In this document: positions 34,288-46,992 of the stretch, piece after piece | Numbering within the stretch: the stretch's first letter is position 1 | How the letters are laid out: each line of letters begins with the position of its first letter | Assembly: GCA_009917695.1 (NCBI GenBank) | Contig: JAACJG010000011.1 | Span: 92,997-156,996 of the forward strand | Origin: Candidatus Rifleibacterium amylolyticum | GTDB taxonomy: Bacteria; Muiribacteriota; Ozemobacteria; Ozemobacterales; Ozemobacteraceae | Direction: 5' to 3' | DNA length: 64,000 bases | Made by a program: the position numbers and the translations under genes | The notes under the pieces: model-generated | What the model was told of the DNA's origin: nothing | Database searches by the model: none | What the model saw: the letters and a program-made list of their open reading frames with translations, nothing else

Positions 34288-34722
34288 TCAAAACTCACCC
34301 TTGAGCTCGCGGGCAAAAAACTCGCGTTCATCTGCGCCGTAGCAGACAAGCCCGATTCTGACCGATGTTTTTACCGGCTTGCTGCCCCAGGGCCAGAACG
34401 CACAATACATGCAGGCCTGGTCACATATCGGCTTGCGGTATAACGTCTGTTCCTTGCGGGTGCCACCGACTTCACGAACGAACTTGTCGAAAAAATTCTT
34501 GAAAAACGCTCCCTCGCCAGCTGGCTTGTAAGGTTTGCCAAAATATTCTTCGACCTCGACCGCCAGCCTGGCTATCAGATCGGTATCTGCAACCCCGCAA
34601 TATAACAGGGGTTCATCCACATCATTGTTTGGCTTGATGTTGTATTTTTTCTCGATGACATCAATCAGTTTGAGCGTTTTGCGGATTTCCGGCAGATAAC
34701 TTTTCATATCACCTCTTATCAT
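34288..34722 (-). CDS. hypothetical Cys-containing protein
   Basis: A 144-aa protein with ..CDQACMYCAFWPWG.. The start codon is uncertain and could be MKSYLP. Confidence 0.35.
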   Translation of the reverse strand: MIRGDMKSYLPEIRKTLKLIDVIEKKYNIKPNNDVDEPLLYCGVADTDLIARLAVEVEEYFGKPYKPAGEGAFFKNFFDKFVREVGGTRKEQTLYRKPICDQACMYCAFWPWGSKPVKTSVRIGLVCYGADEREFFARELKGEF

Positions 34723-34770: not shown

Positions 34771-35595
34771 CTATTTGCGTAAAACGCTGTTCCGCGCCGC
34801 TACCATTGCCTTGAGGCGGTCGGGGTCGAGCGGGTTTTCCCAGAAACCGTCGTATTTGAGACTTGAGCCAATGATCCAGGCATCGGCACGGGCAAAATCA
34901 GCAGCGTTTTCTGGAGTAAGGCCCGATCCTATGATGACTGGAATGCGGCCGGCCGTACGCGCGCGTTTGAGCTCATCTTTGCTGGCAGCCTTGCCGGTTG
35001 CACTGCCGGTAATGATAACTCCGTCGATACCGAAAAAATCAGCGCCATGCACCCAGTCTTCCAGGGCGAGATCGGCAGTTACCGCATGAGCTGAGTGCTT
35101 TTTCTGAATGTCGGTCCAGATTCTGATGCGGCCGGCTCCAAGACGTGTGCGTTCACGCAGCAGTTCGCCGGCGCAGGCTTCTATCCAGCCCTCGTCTGCG
35201 ACATGGCCAAAAACGCAGCCTTCGGCCCTGATGAAATCGCAACCGGAAACATGGGCGACTGCCAGAGCTTCAAGGTTCGCGCCCGCCAGAATCTGTATGC
35301 CAAGCGGGAAACTGTTGCCAATTTTGCGTCTGACCTCGCAGGCAACCCGTGTCATGCCAGCCACGATTTCGGGCCCGACGGAGCCTTTGAGATAAGGCCG
35401 GTCGTGCATATTTTCGAGCATTATGCCATCAAAGCCGGCACTTTGCAGCATGCCTGCTTCAGCCACGGCGGTCGCACAGATCTTTTCCATCGAATCGGTA
35501 TTGAACGGCGTGCCTGGCAGCGCCCTGACATGCACCATACCAATAAGTGCCGGAAGCGGCAACCGGTTTGCGACATCGAGAAGTGGCTTCATCAC
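34771..35595 (-). CDS. BtpA/SgcQ-family TIM-barrel protein
   Basis: ..GFDGIMLENMHD..GIQILAGAN..GCDFIR.. carries BtpA-family hallmarks. Confidence 0.7.
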   Translation of the reverse strand: MMKPLLDVANRLPLPALIGMVHVRALPGTPFNTDSMEKICATAVAEAGMLQSAGFDGIMLENMHDRPYLKGSVGPEIVAGMTRVACEVRRKIGNSFPLGIQILAGANLEALAVAHVSGCDFIRAEGCVFGHVADEGWIEACAGELLRERTRLGAGRIRIWTDIQKKHSAHAVTADLALEDWVHGADFFGIDGVIITGSATGKAASKDELKRARTAGRIPVIIGSGLTPENAADFARADAWIIGSSLKYDGFWENPLDPDRLKAMVAARNSVLRK

Positions 35596-35602
35596 AGACT
35601 CC

Positions 35603-36580
35603 TTAGCTCAACAGATAGATCAGAATGTTTCCTGCAAACAGTATGGCCGGATACCAGAAGCGGCACACCCTGTCGAGATAGATCGCCATATCGAAACGGC
35701 GACGCTTGGCATAGTTATTATTAACCACAGTTTGCACCAGCGCAAGAAAAATCACAATGTAGAACAGAATGAATATTTTGTCAGACATCAACAGATAACC
35801 GACATTCGGCAGCGCGTCGGCCTGCGAATTGTGCAGGGCAACCGCCGAAAGCAGTGCGGTGATGCAGATTCCACACTGAGCCTCGAATTCGCTGGCATTG
35901 ATGAAAAATACGACATAAGCCATGCCGGCAATAATCAGCAGAGGCAGAATGAACTTAACCAGATGCGGCATGAACAGCCGCGAGAGATTGACACTGAAGG
36001 TAAATCTTGAATAGCTCGATTTCCTGTTTGACCCCAGGCCAAAGTCAGTTCGGTAATGATGGGTATCGGTAGCACAGGTGGCGCCTGCCCTTTTCCAGTC
36101 TGGAACTCGAAGTTCCGGTTCGATCCAGAGGTTGAAATCGGCCGGGCTGGCAGAATCCGCGGCAAAATAGAGTTCTTTGTCGGTATACTCGGCGTCTTCG
36201 ATGACAATCGGCAGGCTCTGGCGGTCAAAGGGATAAGAATGCAGCTCGAAATGACCTCGGAATCGCCCCTTGATCCTCTGTGACCATTGCTGTTGACCAT
36301 CAGCACTGGTGCCGCTTGCCAACGGCGTCGCACTCTCGATCACGCCATTCATGAACTCGATATTTTCCGGCTTCCAGACGCTGTCTGCCGGTGCCTTGTA
36401 CCAGATGTAAAAATCGGCGTAAAATTCGCTCTCTTTTACGTCGAGATGCGCAATATCAAGAATGTAAAGGCCGATCTCGATTCGCATCGGCGCTGGTTTT
36501 TCATCAGCCCCCACTCCGCCGGCAACCAACAGAAAGGCGCTTATAATCAGTAATTTTACTAATAACTTGTTTTGCGACAT
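35603..36580 (-). CDS. prokaryotic pentameric ligand-gated ion channel (Cys-loop superfamily) homologue
   Basis: A signal peptide precedes a ~190-aa extracellular beta-rich domain. That domain carries the beta6-beta7 loop motif YPFDRQ and a pre-M1 Arg. Four transmembrane helices follow, with a basic M3-M4 loop (NNNYAKRRRFD). Confidence 0.65.
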   Translation of the reverse strand: MSQNKLLVKLLIISAFLLVAGGVGADEKPAPMRIEIGLYILDIAHLDVKESEFYADFYIWYKAPADSVWKPENIEFMNGVIESATPLASGTSADGQQQWSQRIKGRFRGHFELHSYPFDRQSLPIVIEDAEYTDKELYFAADSASPADFNLWIEPELRVPDWKRAGATCATDTHHYRTDFGLGSNRKSSYSRFTFSVNLSRLFMPHLVKFILPLLIIAGMAYVVFFINASEFEAQCGICITALLSAVALHNSQADALPNVGYLLMSDKIFILFYIVIFLALVQTVVNNNYAKRRRFDMAIYLDRVCRFWYPAILFAGNILIYLLS

Positions 36581-36653: not shown

Positions 36654-37343
36654 TCAGCTGGCGTTGAGTTGTTCGAGAACCCAGGTGAGGGCTTCTTCGC
36701 GGATTTCTTCGGGCGCGGTGCGATGGCCGCCTTCGAACTCATACCATTTCACCCGCCAGCCAAGACTGGTCAGAAACTTGCGGTCCTCTTTCATCAGCTT
36801 GTAATTGAAGTCGGTCGGGCTGGTGAGAAAGGCGCAAACCTTGTCGCGCGGGTAAACATCTTTCTGCTTGAGACTGTTCTCATGAATGTAGCCGACACTG
36901 GTTATGACTGCAGCAACAGTATCAGCGTGAAAAAACGAAAACAGATGCGAAGCCATGCCGCCGCCTGAAGTGCCAACTGCAATGATGCGGTCGGGCATGA
37001 TCGGATACTCACTGGCGACTTTTTCGTGAATCAGTTTGCTCAGCCTGACGAGATATCGCGATATATCCATGCCGTTTTTGACTATTTTAGATGCCAGAAT
37101 AACGCACAAGTGCCTGTCAGCGTGACCTTTCCAGGTGTCGATTGTGTCGTGGGCATTGGCCGACGGTGAAAACCCGACGATCAGAGGATATCTGCTGCCT
37201 TCCGCCAGTCCATCTGGAACGTAAATGAGATACTCGTTGTCCTCATGCATTCCGGCAACCGGCGCCGGCACCTGCGCGAACACAGTCTCTGAGAAGACAA
37301 TACAGACAAAGGTCAGCAGAACAACAAATCTGAACAGTCTCAT
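36654..37343 (-). CDS. secreted alpha/beta-hydrolase (esterase) family protein
   Basis: It has a signal peptide and the nucleophile elbow GTSGGG, and the His-containing C-terminus is typical of esterases/depolymerases. Confidence 0.6.
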   Translation of the reverse strand: MRLFRFVVLLTFVCIVFSETVFAQVPAPVAGMHEDNEYLIYVPDGLAEGSRYPLIVGFSPSANAHDTIDTWKGHADRHLCVILASKIVKNGMDISRYLVRLSKLIHEKVASEYPIMPDRIIAVGTSGGGMASHLFSFFHADTVAAVITSVGYIHENSLKQKDVYPRDKVCAFLTSPTDFNYKLMKEDRKFLTSLGWRVKWYEFEGGHRTAPEEIREEALTWVLEQLNAS

Positions 37344-37361: not shown

Positions 37362-38420
37362 TTAATTCTTGTCCTGGGTTGCGTAATACGGGCAGGCAAC
37401 GAAGTGATCGGGCTCAACTTCAAGCATTGGCGGCGGTTCGATTGCGCATTCATTGCGCGCAATCGGACAGCGCGTTCTGAAGCCGCAGCCAGATGGTTTT
37501 TTCATCGGACTTGGCACATCACCCTCCAGCACTATGCGCTTTTCCTTTTTAACATTCGGGTCCGGGTGAGGAATAGCTGACATGAGTGCGCGCGTATATG
37601 GATGCAGCGGAGTCTTGAACAGGGTTTCGGCTTCGGCCAGTTCGACGATGTTACCCAGATACATGACCGCGATACGGTCTGAAATGTGTTCTACGACAGC
37701 AAGATCGTGGGCGATGAAGATATAGGTCAGACCGAATTCTTCCTGCAGATCCTGCATCAGGTTGATAACCTGGGCCTGAATCGAGACATCGAGCGCTGAA
37801 ACCGGTTCATCAGCTATAACCAGGCGTGGGTTGGTTGCCAGAGCGCGGGCTATGCCTATGCGCTGGCGCTGACCACCCGAGAATTCGTGCGGGTAACGGG
37901 TTGCCTGCTCGGCTGAGAGTCCGACCTTTTCCATGAGCCAGCCGACCTTTTCGAGCATCTGTGACTTGCTGAGTTCGGGCATGTGTATGCTTAGCGGCTC
38001 CATGATGATGTCGCTGACCGTCATGCGCGGATTAAGTGAGGCATAGGGGTCTTGAAAGATCATCTGAATTTCTGAGCGGTAAGGTCGCATCTGATCGTTG
38101 TTGAGTTTGGCAATATCTACCGGCTTTGGTTTTACATCGGTGATTTTATAGCCGGCGGCCGCGTCTTTCTGAGTGTGAAAGAGAATGTGGCCGTCTGTTG
38201 GTCGATTCAGATTGATTATGCATTTGCCGGTAGTTGACTTGCCGCAGCCCGATTCGCCGACCAGACCGAGGGTTTCGCCTTCACGTAAAGTGAAGCTGAC
38301 CCCGTCAATCGCCTTAACATCAGCGACATGACTGCGAAAAACTCCGCCATACACCGGAAAATACATCTTTAGATCATTTACTTCGAGAAGGTTTTTTCTG
38401 TCGGCTTTTGCTTCTGTCAT
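37362..38420 (-). CDS. oppF: oligopeptide/dipeptide ABC transporter ATP-binding protein
   Basis: It has the Walker [10 protein letters not shown], the ABC signature LSGGQRQR, and an Opp-type C-terminal domain. GAGGAGGG lies 8 nt upstream of MTEAKA. Confidence 0.8.
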
Positions 38421-38433
38421 GTTATTTCCCTCC

Positions 38434-39432
38434 TCAGACGCTTTGCATTGGCTTGGCCAGGTGGCATCTGACAAAATGTCCGGGCGCGGTTTCGACCATT
38501 TCAGGCGGCACGTTTTCGCAGGGTTCGTGCTTCTTGCTGCATCGCGTGCAGAAACTACAACCCTTCGGCAGATTGAAAAGCGATGGTACCATACCTTCGA
38601 TAGTACTCAGGCGTCTTACCTTCTGGCCTGGTTTTGGCAGCGAGGCCAGCAAACCCTGTGTGTATGGGTGCTGGGGTGAATGAAAGATCGTTTTGACGTC
38701 GGCGATTTCCTGAATGCGCCCGCAATACATGACAACGACGCGATGACAGGTTTCAGCAATAACCGCCATGTCATGTGTAATCAGCAGAATAGCGGCATTT
38801 GAGGTCTTTGCCTTGACTTCGAGCATCAGTTCAAGAATCTGCGCCTGAATCGTCACATCGAGCGCTGTTGTCGGCTCATCAGCGATGAGCAGCGAAGGGT
38901 CGCATGACAACGCCATGGCGATCATTACGCGCTGGCGCATTCCACCTGAGAACTGATGCGGATACTCGTCGATGCGCTCGCGCGCCGACGGGATGCCGAC
39001 GAGTTCGAGCATTTTAACGGCGTAGTCACGTGCCTCTTTTGGCGTCATGCCTTTGTGATGAACGAGAGACTCGGCTACCTGATCGCCGATGGTGAAGACC
39101 GGGTTGAGGCTGGTCATCGGCTCCTGAAAGATCATCGAAATCTTGTTGCCGCGGATCTTGCGAATTACGTCGTAGTCTTTGCGCCGATAAGCTTCGAGCA
39201 GGTCAGTGCCTTCGAAGATGATGTTGCCCTCGACGATTTCGCCCGGCGGATTCGGAATCAGCTGCATGATCGACAGCGAGGTAACCGATTTGCCAGAGCC
39301 GGATTCGCCGACGATGCCAAGCACCTCACCCGGCAAAATGTCGAAATCGACTCCGTCAACCGCTTTGGCAATTCCCGCCTCGGTCTTGAAGTAGGTTTTG
39401 AGATTCTTAACTTTTAACAGTTCGTTAGCCAT
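38434..39432 (-). CDS. oppD: oligopeptide/dipeptide ABC transporter ATP-binding protein
   Basis: It has the Walker [10 protein letters not shown], the signature FSGGMRQR, and an OppD_C tail. Confidence 0.8.
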
Positions 39433-39447
39433 TTGTATGTCTCCCGC

Positions 39448-40962
39448 TTATCTGAGCCGCGAATACTGCTTCGGGTCGAAGGCTTCGCGAATTGCTTCGC
39501 CGATGAACGATACCAGAAGCAGTGTCAGGAACATCGCCAGCGTCGGCGAAAGAATCAGCCATGGTTTGGTCAGGTTGGCGAGGCCCTGACCGAGCAGTTC
39601 TCCCCACGAAGGTGTCGGTGCCGGCAGGCCGAAACCGAGAAAGTCGAGCGATACGAGCGCGCCAATGTCTGCTACAACTGCGAAGGGAGCGAACGATATG
39701 ACCGGCGTCAGCGAATTGGGCAGAATGTGACGAAAAATGATAGCACCGTCGGTGCACCCGATAGCACGCGCTGCTGATACGTAATCACGCGATTTTTCGC
39801 GCAGAAACTCGGCACGGATGTAATAAGTCATGCCCATCCATTTAAACATGACAAGTATCACGACCAGCATCCAGAAATTCGGTATCATTATCGCGGCAAA
39901 GATCATTACTGTGTACAAAAACGGCATTGCTGACCAGATTTCGACGAAGCGCTGCATGATGATATCGAACAAACCGCCATAATAACCGAGCAGTGCCCCG
40001 ATGGTGATGCCGATAAGGTAGCAGCAGAACGTGACGACGAGCGAGAATGACAGTGAAGTGCGAAAACCGTAGACCATGCGGGCAAACACATCGCGGCCGC
40101 GGTCATCGGTGCCGAGAATATGTTGAAAGGTTCCTGGCTCTCTTACCTCGGGCTTGAGCTTAAGCATGCCGGCATGCGCCATTTCGAGATAAAGGGCGGC
40201 CGGCTCAAGATCGACCCAGTCTGGTCGCTTGAATTTTTCGGTGATTTCTTCAGGAGTCGGCAGAGAATCTGGCAGCTGATACAATGATTCGCCAATATAA
40301 GCCTTGCGCCATTCTCCGGTAAGCCAGGTCGGTGGATGTGGCGGCCGTGTCGGCAGTTCGTCGAGCAATGATTCCAGTGGGCTGTATGGGTATATTGGCA
40401 GCCACACCCAGTCGTCGCCCCATTGTTCATATTTGAGGTCTTCTTCACTGGCATTTCCGGCTTTGATGCGCTCGGCGCGTTCCTTGTTGCGCACGCTGAA
40501 AACATCTTTCATCATGCGGTAATTCGGGTTGCCGTAGCCGCGCATGCCAAAGGTGCGGGCGCTGATGAACCTGAACAGTGTAAAATAGTAGCTGCCCTGA
40601 TATTTAACCATTATGGCGTTGCCATTGATGAAAAATTCAGCGAACAGCGACAGCACAAACAGGGCAATAATCAGCAGAAATGCGTAATAGCCGCGTTTGA
40701 GCGTTTTGAATTTGCCCCAGCGTCTGCGAAAAATAGGACTGGTGATGAAGATGCGAAAGGAATCGGCGCCCGAAACCAGAAGCGGTAGAATGTAGACGAC
40801 AAATCCCGCCGCCAGCACCAGCGCGATAACAGCCTCGGTCGTGTATGAGGGGTTGATGCCCTTTTCGCCAATCGCCGGCATGACCGAATACAGACCCGCC
40901 CAGGCTATCAGCAACGCAATGACATTGAATATCTTTTTGTATTTGTTCCAGGTTTCTATCAT
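39448..40962 (-). CDS. oppC: peptide ABC transporter permease (OppC-like, extended N-terminal region)
   Basis: A 504-aa protein with multiple transmembrane helices and the BPD-transporter EAA-like region, positioned within the operon. Confidence 0.7.
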   Translation of the reverse strand: MIETWNKYKKIFNVIALLIAWAGLYSVMPAIGEKGINPSYTTEAVIALVLAAGFVVYILPLLVSGADSFRIFITSPIFRRRWGKFKTLKRGYYAFLLIIALFVLSLFAEFFINGNAIMVKYQGSYYFTLFRFISARTFGMRGYGNPNYRMMKDVFSVRNKERAERIKAGNASEEDLKYEQWGDDWVWLPIYPYSPLESLLDELPTRPPHPPTWLTGEWRKAYIGESLYQLPDSLPTPEEITEKFKRPDWVDLEPAALYLEMAHAGMLKLKPEVREPGTFQHILGTDDRGRDVFARMVYGFRTSLSFSLVVTFCCYLIGITIGALLGYYGGLFDIIMQRFVEIWSAMPFLYTVMIFAAIMIPNFWMLVVILVMFKWMGMTYYIRAEFLREKSRDYVSAARAIGCTDGAIIFRHILPNSLTPVISFAPFAVVADIGALVSLDFLGFGLPAPTPSWGELLGQGLANLTKPWLILSPTLAMFLTLLLVSFIGEAIREAFDPKQYSRLR

Positions 40963-42176
40963 GAGAATCTGATCCTTGGGTCGATTATGCAGTAAAGCAC
41001 GTCAGACATGATGTTACCGAAGAGTTTGAGCATCGAACCGATGACGAGAATGCCCAGCGTTACCGGGTAATCACGTGCGATCAGCGATTCATAGCCAAGC
41101 AGGCCAAACCCGTTGATGTTGAATACTTTTTCGATCAGGTAAGAACCGGCGAGAATGATTGAAAGCATGTGACCAAGACCTGTTGCAATCGGAATCAGCG
41201 AATTGCGCAGTGCATGCTTGAAAATGACGGTGCGCTCAGACAACCCCTTGGCGAAGGCCGTGCGCACGTAGTCCTGCCCGAGGTTTTCCATCAGCGAATT
41301 TTTCATCAACACTGTTTTCGAGGCAAACATGCCAAGAACGTAGCAGAAGACAGGTAAAATCATGTGCCACATGCTGTCTAGCAGGCGACCGACAAAGTTC
41401 AGATCGGCATGGCCGCCGGTTTTTAGCTGAAAACGTTTTTCGCTCGGGACATGGGCAAAGGCCGGATGATTGGCGCTGATCTGCTGATTGTCGCGTAATT
41501 TTGGGTATTGACTGCGGATTTCGGCCGGCAGATCGACGGCCAGAGCACCCTGCTGCAAAAACATCGAGAGTTTTGACTTTTCGGTGATGTAGCCACTTTC
41601 TTTGCCGCCAGACGGAACAATATCAAGAAATGCATTGCCGCCAAGCAGCATTAGCAGCAGAACGCCGGCAGTCCAGCCGGGAATCGAATATGCGATGAAT
41701 ACCATAACCGAACTGCCGGTATCAAAAGCCGAGCCATGCTTAACTGCTTTCCAGACTCCAAGCGGAATACAGATCAGGTAAGACAGCGTAAAACCGGTCA
41801 ACCCGAAGATAATCGAGATAGGAAACTTTTCTTTTATCAGATCCCATACCGGCCTCGAATAGGTATCTGATGTGCCAAGATCGAAGTGAAGAACACGCCA
41901 GAGCCAATGCAGATATGCGATATAAAAGGGTTTGTCGAAGCCATAGATGGCTTTGAGCTGTTGCATCATTTCTTCTGAGATCTGCCCCTGCTCCATTGCC
42001 GAGTCAGAGGTGCCGCCACCGCCCTCGCTGGTATTAGCCATGGCCTGCTGATAACGCAACACTGCCTGTTCGACCGGTCCGCCCGGAACGAAGCGGGTAA
42101 CCGTAAAACACAGAAAGGTGATGCCGATAAACGTCGGTATCATCAAGAGAAACCTGCGGATAAAATAGCTGTACAT
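40959..42176 (-). CDS. oppB: peptide ABC transporter permease (OppB-like, large periplasmic loop)
   Basis: A 405-aa protein with transmembrane helices and a BPD-transporter fold. Its stop overlaps the oppC start. Confidence 0.7.
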   Translation of the reverse strand: MYSYFIRRFLLMIPTFIGITFLCFTVTRFVPGGPVEQAVLRYQQAMANTSEGGGGTSDSAMEQGQISEEMMQQLKAIYGFDKPFYIAYLHWLWRVLHFDLGTSDTYSRPVWDLIKEKFPISIIFGLTGFTLSYLICIPLGVWKAVKHGSAFDTGSSVMVFIAYSIPGWTAGVLLLMLLGGNAFLDIVPSGGKESGYITEKSKLSMFLQQGALAVDLPAEIRSQYPKLRDNQQISANHPAFAHVPSEKRFQLKTGGHADLNFVGRLLDSMWHMILPVFCYVLGMFASKTVLMKNSLMENLGQDYVRTAFAKGLSERTVIFKHALRNSLIPIATGLGHMLSIILAGSYLIEKVFNINGFGLLGYESLIARDYPVTLGILVIGSMLKLFGNIMSDVLYCIIDPRIRFS

Positions 42177-42179
42177 AAT

Positions 42180-44150
42180 TTACTCGTCTCCTGCTGAAGG
42201 CGGGTAATGCTCATCCCACCAGCGTATTTCTTCAGGACCCCGGTCGAGCCTGGTTTTGCTGCGGCGCGCTTCCTGCAATATCCGATCTTTTTCGTCATCG
42301 AACCACCACAATGAAGCAATAGTCCGCTGGTCGCCAGTTTTCGAAAGCACGTAATCAGGCATGCCGAATTTGTTCCAGTAAAGCAGTCGGGTGCTTGCTG
42401 AATACCAGCCCAGCGCATAAAGCTGCTCGCGGGTAACTATGCCATCGATCTCTCGCACAGCTTTTATACGTTCTTTCGGATCAAACATCAGTGGATACTG
42501 CGCGCAGATCTCATCGACGCGGGCGTTTTTGAAGCCCCAGATATTGTTATTGTTCTTCTTATCGGCAAACTTTGAATGCAACGAACTTTCCGGGTTCGGA
42601 AAAAGCAGGCCGCCGTATGCGCGAGAACTCAGTTCAAATGTGCGTTCGCCGACTTCTTTAATGTCGGTAGCCCAGGTGACCTGTTTCAGGTTGAGCTTGA
42701 TGCCGATGTCGCGCAGGTCTTCCTGAAAGATGGTCAAGATACGCTCAGAACTCTTCTGTACATAATTGATGGAGAGTTCGAAACGTTTGCCGTCCTTGAC
42801 CAGCCAGCCATCTCTATCACGATTCTTCTGTAACCAGCCGGCTGCTTCGAGTAGTTCGACTGCCTTGTCCGGGTCATAGCGTGTTTTGGGATTGTCTGGA
42901 TTTTCGTAGGGTGAATTCGGGTAAAACGAATCGAGATACTCGTATTCATTGAAAAACAGCTTGTCCATCATCTTTTCGCGGTTATAAAGATGGGCGATGG
43001 CTTTGCGCACTCTGATATCGTCGAACGGCGGTTTGCGCATGTTGAAGGCAATGCCGGAAGTGCCGATCGGGCGATGCGTGTAGATCTTGCGCTTTTGAAT
43101 GTAGCCATATGCCAGCTCCGCCAGCATCGCCGGAATAAACTCCTGATTCCATTCGCGCGCCACATTGATTGCAATCCAATCGAGTTCACCCTTTTTAAAG
43201 CGGAGTTTTACCAGGTTGTCGTCCTGAATGAATATGAAATGCAGCCGGTCGAAATTGTAATAGCCGATATTCTTAACCGCATCCTTCTGCCACCAGTCGC
43301 GGCGTCGGTTGAGAATGATCTCTTCATTAACCTTCGAGCTCTCAAATGCATAGGGGCCTGAGCCGGGCATAAGCTTGTTCTGATATTCGGTGAGATAGGT
43401 TTTTCCATCAATTTTAGCAATAATGTGACCCGGCAGCACCGTCATAAAGCCGATCGACATGAAGGCGCGCCAGTTGAGCTGCTTCGACTTTACCATCACT
43501 ACGCTCTTCGAGATCGCCACCGGCTTTTCGTATTTGTTCCAGTAGTCGATAGAAAAGGGGTCTTCGATGCCAGGGTCAGTGTAGAGTTCCCAGCTTTTAA
43601 CTATGTCTTCGGCAACGACCGGTTGCCCGTCAGACCAGCGTGCGTTTTCATCGAGTTCAAAAAAGAAGCTGACTTTGTCGTCAGCTATTGCCCAGCGTTT
43701 TGCCAGATTAGGTACGTAATTGAAAGTAACCGGGTCGAGATCGAGCATGCTTTCGTAGCATAGCCCGGTCAACATGCTGTTGAAGGTCGAATTGGCGTTC
43801 TTGCCGACTGTGCGCAGCGAAGGCGGGTAAGAAGTCTCGGCATACTTGAGAGTGCCACCCTTTTTGGCATCCCGACTGCCAAGCCCCTGAAATTCAGCAT
43901 TGGTTTCCCATTTGAGATCACTCAACATCACGATAATTTCACGGCTGATACCATCATAAACACCAGAATAAGCAGTCTGAACTGCTTCGGCGTGGATTTT
44001 GAATTCCTCTTCACTCATGGGTTCTGACATCAGAGAGACTGTTTCACTGCCTGATTCCGGTGTCGGCGTCGCAGTAGCGACCTCTTCGCCATGCACCGCC
44101 TGAAAAACCAGCAGCATGCATATAATCACAACTAAAATATTTCTGTTCAA
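42180..44150 (-). CDS. oppA: ABC transporter substrate-binding protein, family 5 (peptide/nickel)
   Basis: A signal peptide precedes a 656-aa SBP_bac_5-type sequence. It is the first gene of the minus-strand opp operon. Confidence 0.75.
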   Translation of the reverse strand: MNRNILVVIICMLLVFQAVHGEEVATATPTPESGSETVSLMSEPMSEEEFKIHAEAVQTAYSGVYDGISREIIVMLSDLKWETNAEFQGLGSRDAKKGGTLKYAETSYPPSLRTVGKNANSTFNSMLTGLCYESMLDLDPVTFNYVPNLAKRWAIADDKVSFFFELDENARWSDGQPVVAEDIVKSWELYTDPGIEDPFSIDYWNKYEKPVAISKSVVMVKSKQLNWRAFMSIGFMTVLPGHIIAKIDGKTYLTEYQNKLMPGSGPYAFESSKVNEEIILNRRRDWWQKDAVKNIGYYNFDRLHFIFIQDDNLVKLRFKKGELDWIAINVAREWNQEFIPAMLAELAYGYIQKRKIYTHRPIGTSGIAFNMRKPPFDDIRVRKAIAHLYNREKMMDKLFFNEYEYLDSFYPNSPYENPDNPKTRYDPDKAVELLEAAGWLQKNRDRDGWLVKDGKRFELSINYVQKSSERILTIFQEDLRDIGIKLNLKQVTWATDIKEVGERTFELSSRAYGGLLFPNPESSLHSKFADKKNNNNIWGFKNARVDEICAQYPLMFDPKERIKAVREIDGIVTREQLYALGWYSASTRLLYWNKFGMPDYVLSKTGDQRTIASLWWFDDEKDRILQEARRSKTRLDRGPEEIRWWDEHYPPSAGDE

Positions 44151-44329
44151 GAAAGAACTCCTTCCCTGCTGAATCTTATATATCTTTTTATGCGATCACT
44201 CTGGCGACCAGCGCCACAACTGCCTTTGAACTTCTTCAAACTGCGTGGCAGCAAAACAGTCAACCATAGAGCATTCGAATTGCCTGCCAATAACTTACAG
44301 GCTGTTGCCAGACTTGGCAAGCGTGAATT

Positions 44330-44914
44330 TTAGAAAACGCGATAACCCTTTTCTGACGCCAGTTCAAGCATCTCGCGGTCACCGCGCGAATCACCGTAAG
44401 CATAGATTTTATCACAACTTGCGAGATCGACAATCTCTTTGATGCGTCTGACTTTTTCAGGGCCCCAGCAGTTGGCCGTTGCAAAATTGCCGGTCAGAAC
44501 GCCATCTATCTCTTCGAGTCGGGTCGCTATCAGCTCGATTCCATGCTGACTACACCAGAATTTCAGATAATCGGTGAACGAGGCCGAAACAAGAATTACC
44601 CTGTGTTTCTGGGAAACATGCCAGCGCATCTTCTCGATTGCCGCCGGCCTGATCATGCGGTTGAGTTTTTCAGTCACAAAGCGCTCGGCGAAAGCATCGA
44701 ATTCTTCGCGACGCATGCCTTTTAAAAACGCCTGGGTCACCCTTTGTTTGGCCGCCTGATTGTCGATGATTCTTGCCGCGAAAGCAAGCAGCCATGGCGA
44801 AACTGGCAGCATGCGCCACAAAAAAGCCGGTGCCCCGAAACAGAACAGCAGGAATTCACGGAAGCTGTCGTGCGTTGTCACGGTTCCGTCAAAATCAAAC
44901 AGGGCAAGCGTCAT
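44330..44914 (-). CDS. HAD-superfamily subfamily IB hydrolase (phosphoserine-phosphatase-like)
   Basis: I chose the start MTLALFDFDGTV, which has the DxDGT motif I. ..ILVSASF.. is motif II, and ..YGDSRGD.. is motif IV. Confidence 0.65.
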   Translation of the reverse strand: MTLALFDFDGTVTTHDSFREFLLFCFGAPAFLWRMLPVSPWLLAFAARIIDNQAAKQRVTQAFLKGMRREEFDAFAERFVTEKLNRMIRPAAIEKMRWHVSQKHRVILVSASFTDYLKFWCSQHGIELIATRLEEIDGVLTGNFATANCWGPEKVRRIKEIVDLASCDKIYAYGDSRGDREMLELASEKGYRVF

Positions 44915-46992
44915 TAAGCCGTCTCCAGCCCGGTCTGCCAGCGCAGAAATATCCACTGATCGGTCTGTTCTTCGAGGGTTATCTTGAGTGGCTTCCCTAT
45001 CCCATGGCCACTTTCACGGTCGACCCAGAGAATTATCGGCTTCTCTTCATTATTGGCAGCATGAGCCTGCAAGGCTGCTGTCATCTTTCTTGCATGCATC
45101 GGGTGCACCCTGGTATCGTTTTCACCGGTAAAAAAGAATACTGCCGGGTATTCTCTTTTGTTGCAGACATTGTGATAAGGAGAATAATCGACCAGCCAGT
45201 CGAAATCTGCCTCATTGTCGGCACAACCATATTCTGGCACCCAGTATCTGGCCATCAGGAACTTGTGATACCTGATCATGTCCAGTAACGGAACACCGCA
45301 GATAACAGCTTTGAACAAATGTGGCCTTCGAGTCAGGCAGGCGCCTGTCAGCAGTCCGCCATTCGAGCGCCCGCTGATTGCCAGTTTTTCGCTGCAGGTA
45401 TATTTTTGCGCTATCAGCCACTCCGCTGCTGCTTCAAAATCTTCAAAAACAGATTTCTTGTTGGCCAGCATCCCGGCCTGATGCCACTTGTCACCATATT
45501 CACCGCCACCGCGCAGATTGGCAACCGCGTAAATACCGCCATCCTGAATCCAGGGTATCAGCAGTCCTGAAAAAGCCGGGTTCATACTGATGCCAAACCC
45601 GCCGTAACCATAAAGCAAGGTCGGGTTTCTGCCGTTTTTTTCGATACCACGGCGATAGACCAGAAACATGCTGACCTGGGTTCCATCTTTTGACTGATAA
45701 CAGTGCTGCTCGACCAGCATCTCGGAAAGATCGATCGCGAGCTCGCACTTCCACCAGACCCGCTGCAGACCATCAGAGCTTCGGCACTGAATAATTGTGG
45801 GCAGGTGATTGAATGATTCATAGTGAATGAAAAAGTTATCATGCTCTTCGCTGCACGAAATGCCGGCAGAGCCGATTCCCGGCAGTTTGATGGCAGACCG
45901 TTCTTTACTCTTCAAATCGTACTTAACCAGCTCACTGGCGGCGGCTTTCTGATAACTGACTATCATCGAGTTGCCGGTGAAATCCCAGCCTTCGATTGTC
46001 GCATCGGAGCGCTCTTTGATTATTATCTGCCAGTTTTTCCGGCTGGGGTTGGTCAGTTCAGATTCGTAGATCTGGCCATTCGGGGTGCCCTCGTTACTGT
46101 GAATGAACAGACGATCACCGACGACCCGGGCGTGCGTTGTACTGTCGCAGTCGCAGATTATCACGCGCTTGTTGAAATCGCCAAACTCGACCCATTCTTT
46201 GAAATCGATCAACCAGAGATCGTTCGAGCGGGTGCTCGTGTAATATGACAGCAGCAGCCATCTGCCATCTTCCGATAGTGATGCAAACGGGCCCCAGGTC
46301 GTAGCCAGAGGGCCTTCTTTGTATTGCGCGTAGATCAGGCGGTCGTCATCAGGATTGTCACCGAGATAATGCAGCTTTATCTCGCGGGAATAGGGATTCT
46401 TGACGTCAGACAGGCGCGAATATATGAAGCCTGAGTTGTCTGCCAGCCAGTAGACGCTGATGACCTTGTTGGCTATTTCATCTTTGAGATGGCTGCCGTC
46501 TTTCACCCGCATGATTTTGAGCTGGTAATTCTCATCGCCACTGCGTGCAGTGCCATAAGCCAGCAGTTCCCCGTCGTGTGAAGCTGAAAACCAGCCAATT
46601 GTCGTCAATCCGCTGGCATCGATCTTTTCGGGATCGATCAATATCTTCTCACGACCCCAGACATCTTCGGCCATGAACAGGCAAGGCTGATCCTTGTTTC
46701 CTTCACGCCTGAAATAAAAGATGCGATTGCCGGCATAGACCGGAAGGCTGTTGCTGCTGCGCTCGAGTAAAGGAGTCAGGCGCTCTTTGAGCTTCTGCCG
46801 ACCTGGCAGACGGTCGAGAATCGACCTGGTAAAAGCATTCTGCTGATCTGTCCATTCGGCGACCTCGGGGGTGATTTTTCCCTCGGCATCGCCTTCGAGC
46901 CAGCGGAATTCATCAGCACAGCGAACTCCATGCAGTTCTTCCTTTACTTTTACGACTTTACTCGGCGGATAACCCGGCTTTTTCTTTGGCAT
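44914..46992 (-). CDS. prolyl oligopeptidase (S9A family)
   Basis: A 692-aa protein with an N-terminal beta-propeller and a C-terminal catalytic domain with GRSNGGLL (GxSxGG) and ..DTRVHP... Confidence 0.8.
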   Translation of the reverse strand: MPKKKPGYPPSKVVKVKEELHGVRCADEFRWLEGDAEGKITPEVAEWTDQQNAFTRSILDRLPGRQKLKERLTPLLERSSNSLPVYAGNRIFYFRREGNKDQPCLFMAEDVWGREKILIDPEKIDASGLTTIGWFSASHDGELLAYGTARSGDENYQLKIMRVKDGSHLKDEIANKVISVYWLADNSGFIYSRLSDVKNPYSREIKLHYLGDNPDDDRLIYAQYKEGPLATTWGPFASLSEDGRWLLLSYYTSTRSNDLWLIDFKEWVEFGDFNKRVIICDCDSTTHARVVGDRLFIHSNEGTPNGQIYESELTNPSRKNWQIIIKERSDATIEGWDFTGNSMIVSYQKAAASELVKYDLKSKERSAIKLPGIGSAGISCSEEHDNFFIHYESFNHLPTIIQCRSSDGLQRVWWKCELAIDLSEMLVEQHCYQSKDGTQVSMFLVYRRGIEKNGRNPTLLYGYGGFGISMNPAFSGLLIPWIQDGGIYAVANLRGGGEYGDKWHQAGMLANKKSVFEDFEAAAEWLIAQKYTCSEKLAISGRSNGGLLTGACLTRRPHLFKAVICGVPLLDMIRYHKFLMARYWVPEYGCADNEADFDWLVDYSPYHNVCNKREYPAVFFFTGENDTRVHPMHARKMTAALQAHAANNEEKPIILWVDRESGHGIGKPLKITLEEQTDQWIFLRWQTGLETA

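Follow-up and report, generated by a model that had tools for sequence, protein, structure and literature searches.

A stand-alone pentameric ligand-gated ion channel homologue with a predicted cation pore in Candidatus Rifleibacterium amylolyticum

A 64,000-nucleotide stretch of the Candidatus Rifleibacterium amylolyticum assembly GCA_009917695.1 (contig JAACJG010000011.1, positions 92,997 to 156,996; hereafter the window) contains a genuine bacterial relative of the animal neurotransmitter-gated ion channels. The gene, which codes for a Pro-loop receptor, or pLGIC (pentameric ligand-gated ion channel), of 325 amino acids (aa), occupies window positions 35603..36580 on the minus strand, TAA stop included, and is assigned from its translation, Pfam and PDB matches, an AlphaFold2 (AF2) model and fold matches. 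We are highly confident in reading its product as a stand-alone pLGIC subunit with a predicted cation pore; a ligand of the small-amine type is predicted with less confidence. Prokaryotic pLGICs serve as structural models for the human nicotinic, GABA-A, glycine and 5-HT3 receptors. A handful have been characterised (GLIC, ELIC, sTeLIC and DeCLIC), none with a known physiological role (PMC4795631). With the present gene the family gains a compact stand-alone protein, well conserved in a candidate phylum and with what appears from sequence to be a recognisable ELIC-like acidic and aromatic pocket, which it would be reasonable to express and screen for ligands. The protein is an added member of a well-known family and no new kind of system; the picture of the pLGIC family is unchanged and a specialist would not be surprised.

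Identity, layout and conservation of the channel gene

Both the open reading frame (ORF) listing and direct translation give an uninterrupted frame from ATG to TAA at 35603-36580 on the minus strand, while the plus-strand frame over the same interval holds many stops. A preliminary description of this DNA, made from the letters alone, had placed a 325-aa pLGIC homologue exactly here, leaving the strand unstated, and had suggested a profile search and a model comparison with GLIC and ELIC. The profile search finds PF02932 (Neur_chan_memb) above threshold at 38.2 bits (gathering cut-off 28.1; aa 211-294) and PF02931 (Neur_chan_LBD) just under it at 24.4 bits (cut-off 26; E 2.2e-5; aa 63-202). 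The two domains lie in the correct position and order along the protein, and both are precomputed for several of its orthologues. In NCBIfam, TIGR00860 (LIC) is matched at 1.5e-18, with 66.8 bits against a curated cut-off of 280.2, and NF033918 (LGIC_1) at 3.5e-15, with 56.2 bits against a curated cut-off of 500; the protein is homologous to these curated subfamilies yet lies outside them. A phmmer search of the PDB aligned aa 66-323 to nearly full ELIC, GLIC and their chimeras (6e-16 to 1e-12).

The structural comparison agrees with this. A confident AF2 monomer model built from 42 homologues (mean pLDDT 91.7, pTM 0.77) returns only pLGICs as fold matches and shows the beta-sandwich ectodomain followed by helices M1-M4 that characterises the superfamily. 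The N-terminus, MSQNKLLVKLLIISAFLLVAGGVGA followed by DEKP, has the typical n-h-c layout of a signal peptide (about aa 1-26; 36503..36580; this and all features below are on the minus strand), and cleavage is likely after GVGA. Its hydropathy peak at aa 12-17 and model helix at aa 2-21 bear out the signal peptide proposed earlier, and the hydrophobic N-terminus is kept in the orthologues. The periplasmic ligand-binding domain follows at aa 27-202 (35975..36502), delimited by DSSP strands at aa 32-201, the GLIC and ELIC alignments and PF02931. It had rightly been called beta-rich, but its length was overestimated at about 190 aa; the mature domain is about 176 aa long. The domain is compact, with some 20 residues fewer in the beta2-beta3 region than GLIC or ELIC, and its loop C is longer and contains Y-x-T-x-F-G (aa 176-181), a conserved motif. 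At its tip, the beta6-beta7 Pro loop reads YPFDRQ directly in the sequence (aa 116-121; 36218..36235), as previously noted, and aligns with Y119-P120-F121-D122 of GLIC and FPFDRQ of ELIC.

Four transmembrane helices, as had been predicted, follow the ectodomain in both the model and the hydropathy profile, and they are connected by very short loops in the model. M1 (aa 203-226; 35903..35974; AF2 and GLIC alignment) contains the kink proline P213, with R201 just upstream. The pore-lining M2 (aa 232-256; 35813..35887) is delimited by AF2, with its register set by the GLIC alignment, and M3 (aa 265-292; 35705..35788) by AF2 and hydropathy. M4 (aa 296-325; 35606..35695; AF2 helix 296-324), placed with the help of the ELIC and GLIC M4 alignments, ends in a periplasmic C-terminus. 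The short basic M3-M4 loop described before is a cytoplasmic turn of about three residues, RRR within AKRRRFD (35696-35704; AF2 and hydropathy). Signal peptide, ectodomain and transmembrane domain together cover all 325 aa, with no fused accessory domain.

The seven most conserved superfamily positions are listed by Jaiteh, Taly & Henin (2016, Table 1; PMC4795631). All seven are present in HMMER and reference-sequence alignments, for which the GLIC reference matches PDB 2XQ3 over residues 1-317 and the ELIC reference is residue-identical to 2YN6. Y116, P117 and D119 correspond to GLIC Y119, P120 and D122; W162 to the ectodomain-core tryptophan W160; R201, judged by residue identity, to the pre-M1 arginine R192 that partners the Pro-loop aspartate; P213 to the M1 kink proline P204; and P258 to the M2-M3 loop proline P247. 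Y116 and P117 are invariant among the 42 homologues. With the Pro loop Y116-P117-F118-D119, pre-M1 R201 and a near-invariant M2-M3 loop (L-P-x-V-G-Y), the gating machinery would be intact. The disulfide cysteines of the Cys loop are absent (G109 and L123 sit seven residues either side of Y116, and C169 is the sole ectodomain cysteine), which is the normal prokaryotic state (PMC4795631). The earlier label of a Cys-loop family member thus holds for the superfamily and fits only loosely as a name, as the metazoan cysteines are missing. In sum, the protein has every pLGIC superfamily feature that can be tested by sequence or model, and Pfam, PDB matches, the AF2 model and the conserved positions all support the pLGIC interpretation.

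A word-indexed search returned 76 homologues. Among homologues with more than about 43% identity, the ones labelled with an organism are all but one proteins of Candidatus Riflebacteria/Ozemobacteraceae metagenome-assembled genomes (MAGs), and all are annotated as "hypothetical"; the exception is taken up below. A scan of species-representative genomes gave 22 loci at 52-93% identity (21 full-length and one cut fragment), including HGW-Riflebacteria-2 (86%) and Ca. Ozemobacter sibiricus (60%). The channel is conserved across the candidate phylum Riflebacteria, a group for whose ion channels our literature search found no publications. Against an 86%-identical orthologue (locus L002), dN is 0.08 and dS 1.41, a dN/dS of about 0.06; the GC content of the gene (49.7%) matches that of the window (51.3%). 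An exhaustive HMMER search of 1.84 billion representatives yielded 4,441 matches at E<=1e-3, and 138 when the threshold was E<=1e-30. Relatives thus abound in metagenomes, where genes of this kind, with over 4,400 representative clusters, are no rarity.

One could still suppose a decaying, non-functional remnant, or a mis-called ORF with a superficial resemblance to pLGICs, given that PF02931 falls just under its gathering threshold and the NCBIfam subfamily models far under their cut-offs. This is almost certainly wrong: the ORF is full-length and free of frameshifts, orthologues at 57-93% identity (the range seen for the 21 full-length loci and the cut fragment) exist in at least 22 MAGs, the dN/dS is about 0.06, all seven superfamily positions are retained, and the high-confidence model matches pLGIC folds only. 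Conservation and structure effectively refute a remnant, and together with the dN/dS they rule out a chance ORF or pseudogene.

Predicted pore, candidate ligand pocket and trigger

The register of M2 is fixed because L257-P258 aligns with GLIC L246-P247 (22' and 23'). Starting at E233, M2 reads E-A-Q from -2' to 0', C-G-I-C-I-T from 1' to 6' (Gly 2', Thr 6'), A-L-L to Leu 9', S-A-V-A to Ala 13', L-H-N to Asn 16' and S-Q-A-D to Asp 20'. M2 and the M2-M3 loop are nearly invariant throughout the Riflebacteria clade. The E-A-Q start parallels the E-A-N of GLIC and is unlike the P-A-R with which M2 begins in anion channels; by this analogy we predict the pore to be cation-selective. The corresponding selectivity-filter rules are summarised in section 7 of PMC4795631. 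Five identical subunits would form an M2-lined pore in which rings of Glu -2' and Asp 20', together with Thr 6' and Leu 9', would make a cation pathway with a hydrophobic gate at Leu 9', following the rules for GLIC and the nicotinic acetylcholine receptor. Thr 6', Leu 9' and Ala 13' are common to this M2 and that of ELIC, whereas the charged ring is S-E-R in ELIC and the GLIC-like E-A-Q here.

ELIC (Erwinia/Dickeya; PDB 2VL0, 2YN6) likewise stands alone, measures about 320 aa, has a short turn between M3 and M4 and lacks the Cys-loop cysteines. It differs in being only about 23% identical, in having the roughly 20 beta2-beta3 residues missing here and in lacking the longer loop C with Y-x-T-x-F-G. 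Its measured agonists are cysteamine, GABA and other primary amines. Once the signal peptide is removed, each subunit of the Riflebacteria channel would place its beta-sandwich in the periplasm and its four helices in the inner membrane, and the subunit interface would hold a pocket of acidic (E75, E128 and D129) and aromatic residues (Y39, Y58, Y176/F180 and Y190) matching the ELIC amine site. In that site, Glu77 and Glu131 may bind the primary amino group of the agonist, whose aliphatic part lies among Phe187, Phe133, Tyr174 and Ile79; the mutations F19A and V40A alter activation (Zimmermann & Dutzler 2011, PMC3119659). The counterpart of ELIC E77 is E75 (at least 90% conserved) and that of E131 is the invariant E128, next to which stands D129 (at least 90% conserved). 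ELIC F187 (F187/188), F19, V40 and Y38 map to the conserved residues Y190, Y39, W60 and Y58 (invariant), while F133 and I79 map to A130 and M77, which are not conserved. Of 176 positions in the ectodomain, 32 show at least 90% conservation in the 42 homologues, and these include six of the nine that make up the ELIC site (hypergeometric p=0.0013).

These ELIC-like acidic and aromatic residues would make a small periplasmic ligand with an amino group, i.e. an amine or amino-acid-type compound, the likeliest trigger, an assignment in which our confidence is moderate to low. Ligand binding would open the pore and depolarise the cell or let cations in, and the chemosensing of nutrient-derived solutes is a plausible role. 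GLIC (proton-gated, from Gloeobacter; PDB 3EAM; about 18-21% identity) lacks the ELIC-like acidic and aromatic pocket residues, with I131, V132 and E181 where E128, D129 and Y190 stand here. sTeLIC, which is gated by alkaline pH, and DeCLIC (PDB 6FL9 and 6V4A) are about 19-21% identical. All solved members are about equally distant, at 15-23% identity.

Comparison with relatives fused to solute-binding domains adds to the case for the pocket. Its residues are kept in stand-alone and in NMT1_3-fused relatives, whereas in four relatives that carry SBP_bac_5 at the C-terminus E75 is replaced by S/D/H/S, Y190 by A/G/L/V and R192 by T/S/V/Q, and E128 reads S/G/G/E. This difference supports a functional pocket in the stand-alone forms, and direct gating by a small amine-type ligand is favoured by it.

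A number of points weigh against this reading. The nearest experimentally studied protein is only 23% identical. HMMER and two MAFFT runs align loop C to ELIC in different ways, and the equivalence of Y176 with ELIC Y174 is therefore uncertain; the other five of the nine site mappings are stable. The loop-B aromatic F133 of ELIC is Ala or Ser in the family of the channel, and W60 and Y39 could belong to the structural core instead of contacting a ligand. Position 16', usually hydrophobic in pLGICs and Phe in ELIC, is Asn here (N251; 35828-35830) and in the three closest homologues; most of the family has Ile and a few members Met, Ser or Gln, which may make for a different gate. Across orthologue loci and distant stand-alone relatives there is no conserved gene partner. 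Lastly, among the four well-studied prokaryotic pLGICs, GLIC and sTeLIC are pH-gated and DeCLIC is Ca2+-modulated, and by analogy a non-organic trigger is a realistic alternative.

The channel could then be gated mainly by protons or divalent cations instead of an organic ligand, the conserved acidic pocket residues serving as titratable or cation-binding sites. We consider this somewhat unlikely. The proton-sensing residues of GLIC, which we take to be E35, H235 (11') and E243 (19'), align to S51, A246 and A254; this mismatch lowers the likelihood of a GLIC-like proton sensor, while pH sensitivity as such would still be possible. The large N-terminal domain of DeCLIC is absent. Furthermore, the aromatics are conserved together with the acidic residues and are lost in the SBP_bac_5 fusions, a pattern more like that of an organic-ligand site.

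Relatives with solute-binding domains

As judged from sequence, the subfamily to which the protein belongs is set apart by its loop C and has a compact ectodomain; among more distant relatives there are proteins with accessory domains. The nearest relatives outside the Riflebacteria (35-42% identity) include P0081, P0082 and P0088, in which NMT1_3 (TAXI/NMT1-like) precedes the pLGIC, and P0101, an N-terminal fusion of Peripla_BP_6 (a type-I periplasmic binding domain). Both kinds resemble the window protein in their compact ectodomain, loop C motif and M2 sequence. Of the two proteins that were aligned, P0081 with its NMT1_3 domain retains the majority of the ELIC-like pocket residues, but Peripla_BP_6-fused P0101 has lost several. 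A different arrangement is found in many relatives, among them P0109, P0111, P0116, P0122, P0131 and P0138 (33-39% identity), where an N-terminal pLGIC is joined by a Pro/Ala-rich linker to a C-terminal SBP_bac_5 domain (OppA/DppA-like) that follows M4, whose end is periplasmic. Tasneem, Iyer, Jakobsson & Aravind (2004) described pLGICs with an accessory periplasmic binding protein (PBP) domain, which the window protein lacks; they listed N-terminal fusions and operonic PBP-II only, leaving the C-terminal SBP_bac_5 arrangement after M4 unlisted (PMC549065). Our literature search found no mention of pLGICs with a C-terminal solute-binding domain, and these fusions are the more unusual observation, although they lie outside the window.

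Such architectures raise another way in which the channel might be gated, namely that it does not itself bind the signal and is gated when a solute-binding protein of the periplasm docks with its ligand bound, for example the OppA-like one whose gene lies six genes upstream on the same strand; this would be a split version of the fused relatives. Domains of this type occur in relatives at 30-42% identity, as N-terminal NMT1_3 or Peripla_BP_6 or as C-terminal SBP_bac_5, and among the best 150 representatives an extension of at least 200 aa is C-terminal in 32 and N-terminal in 15. Operonic PBPs have also been proposed to cooperate with bacterial pLGICs (Tasneem et al. 2004, PMC549065). We nevertheless judge docking very unlikely. 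The retention of the pocket in stand-alone forms and its loss in SBP_bac_5 fusions suggest that stand-alone channels bind their ligand directly, and the gene neighbourhood, considered below, also weighs against docking.

Gene neighbourhood

A peptide-utilisation cluster (37362-46992) lies directly upstream on the same strand. It begins with an S9 prolyl oligopeptidase (44914-46992), a HAD hydrolase and an OppA-like SBP_bac_5 protein (42180-44150), followed by OppB, OppC, OppD and OppF (two permeases and two ATPases). Between the cluster and the channel is a 229-aa alpha/beta hydrolase (36654-37343) whose N-terminus resembles a signal peptide and which contains the serine-hydrolase motif GTSGG; its esterase/PHB-depolymerase matches are sub-threshold only (NF050058, 5.6e-8), and the secreted esterase named in the preliminary description is plausible though weakly supported. 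The BtpA-family gene named there on the other side is well founded: a BtpA/SgcQ-family gene lies at 34771..35595 (PF03437 1.4e-61, TIGR00259 1.3e-57). Further downstream are a 144-aa orphan gene (34288-34722), a cytidine-deaminase-like gene and Smr.

The position of SBP_bac_5 and OppBCDF, which directly precede the esterase and the channel, would suit docking of a loaded binding protein. However, OppA of the window and the SBP_bac_5 domain fused in P0111 share only 22% identity, a generic family level, and the adjacency is limited to one closely syntenic clade, within which insertions of about 2.4 kb break it in L002 and L004. Orthologues of the Ozemobacter clade and distant stand-alone relatives have unrelated neighbours. 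Of the fused or neighbouring ligand-binding domain that had been suggested as worth looking for, no fused form exists here, and the neighbouring OppA-like protein is a candidate of low probability.

A broader proposal takes in the whole of the above. The compact ectodomain, marked by the deletion of about 20 residues in beta2-beta3, the Y-x-T-x-F-G of loop C and the near-invariant M2, could define an undescribed subfamily that has repeatedly recruited solute-binding domains at either end, with the window protein acting as a nutrient sensor that turns the presence of peptide- or amino-acid-derived compounds into a changed membrane potential, alone or with the OppA-like protein. The sensor role is drawn from the position of the gene at the end of the S9 prolyl oligopeptidase/HAD/OppABCDF/esterase cluster. 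We regard this combined proposal as doubtful.

At the junction with BtpA (35590-35605), the arrangement resembles translational coupling. The TAA stop of the channel gene overlaps the BtpA Shine-Dalgarno sequence AAGGAG (35599-35604), and the true BtpA start is likely the ATG at 35592, with ideal spacing to that site, rather than the GTG at 35595. A scan found no terminator-like site at the junction; this and the overlap make co-transcription of the channel with BtpA likely. Around the channel gene, promoter and terminator scans returned no more sites than in shuffled sequence, and no site fell at a gene boundary. A family HMM run against the six-frame translation found no second pLGIC in the 64-kb window, and neither tRNA genes nor Rfam families at gathering threshold were detected anywhere in it (1-64000).

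The order pLGIC-BtpA-144-aa gene-deaminase-Smr is kept in loci L001-L014, and none of these neighbours occurs in L015-L021. In P0040 the slot after the channel holds CorA and then Smr. Across L001-L014 the 144-aa gene is 73-94% identical, more conserved than the channel itself, and it has no match in Pfam, NCBIfam or the PDB. Other relatives adjoin RND efflux genes, guanylate cyclases or a CHASE/PAS protein. In two independent distant loci (L023/L024 and L027) the channel follows an RND efflux pair (membrane-fusion protein and ACR_tran), an adjacency that could be coincidence. One locus of the syntenic group, L005 (SABV01000137.1), is labelled "Erysipelotrichia bacterium" and has the same order from the channel through BtpA and the 144-aa gene to the deaminase, with identities of 68-79%; a Riflebacteria contig that was mis-binned or wrongly labelled is the probable explanation.
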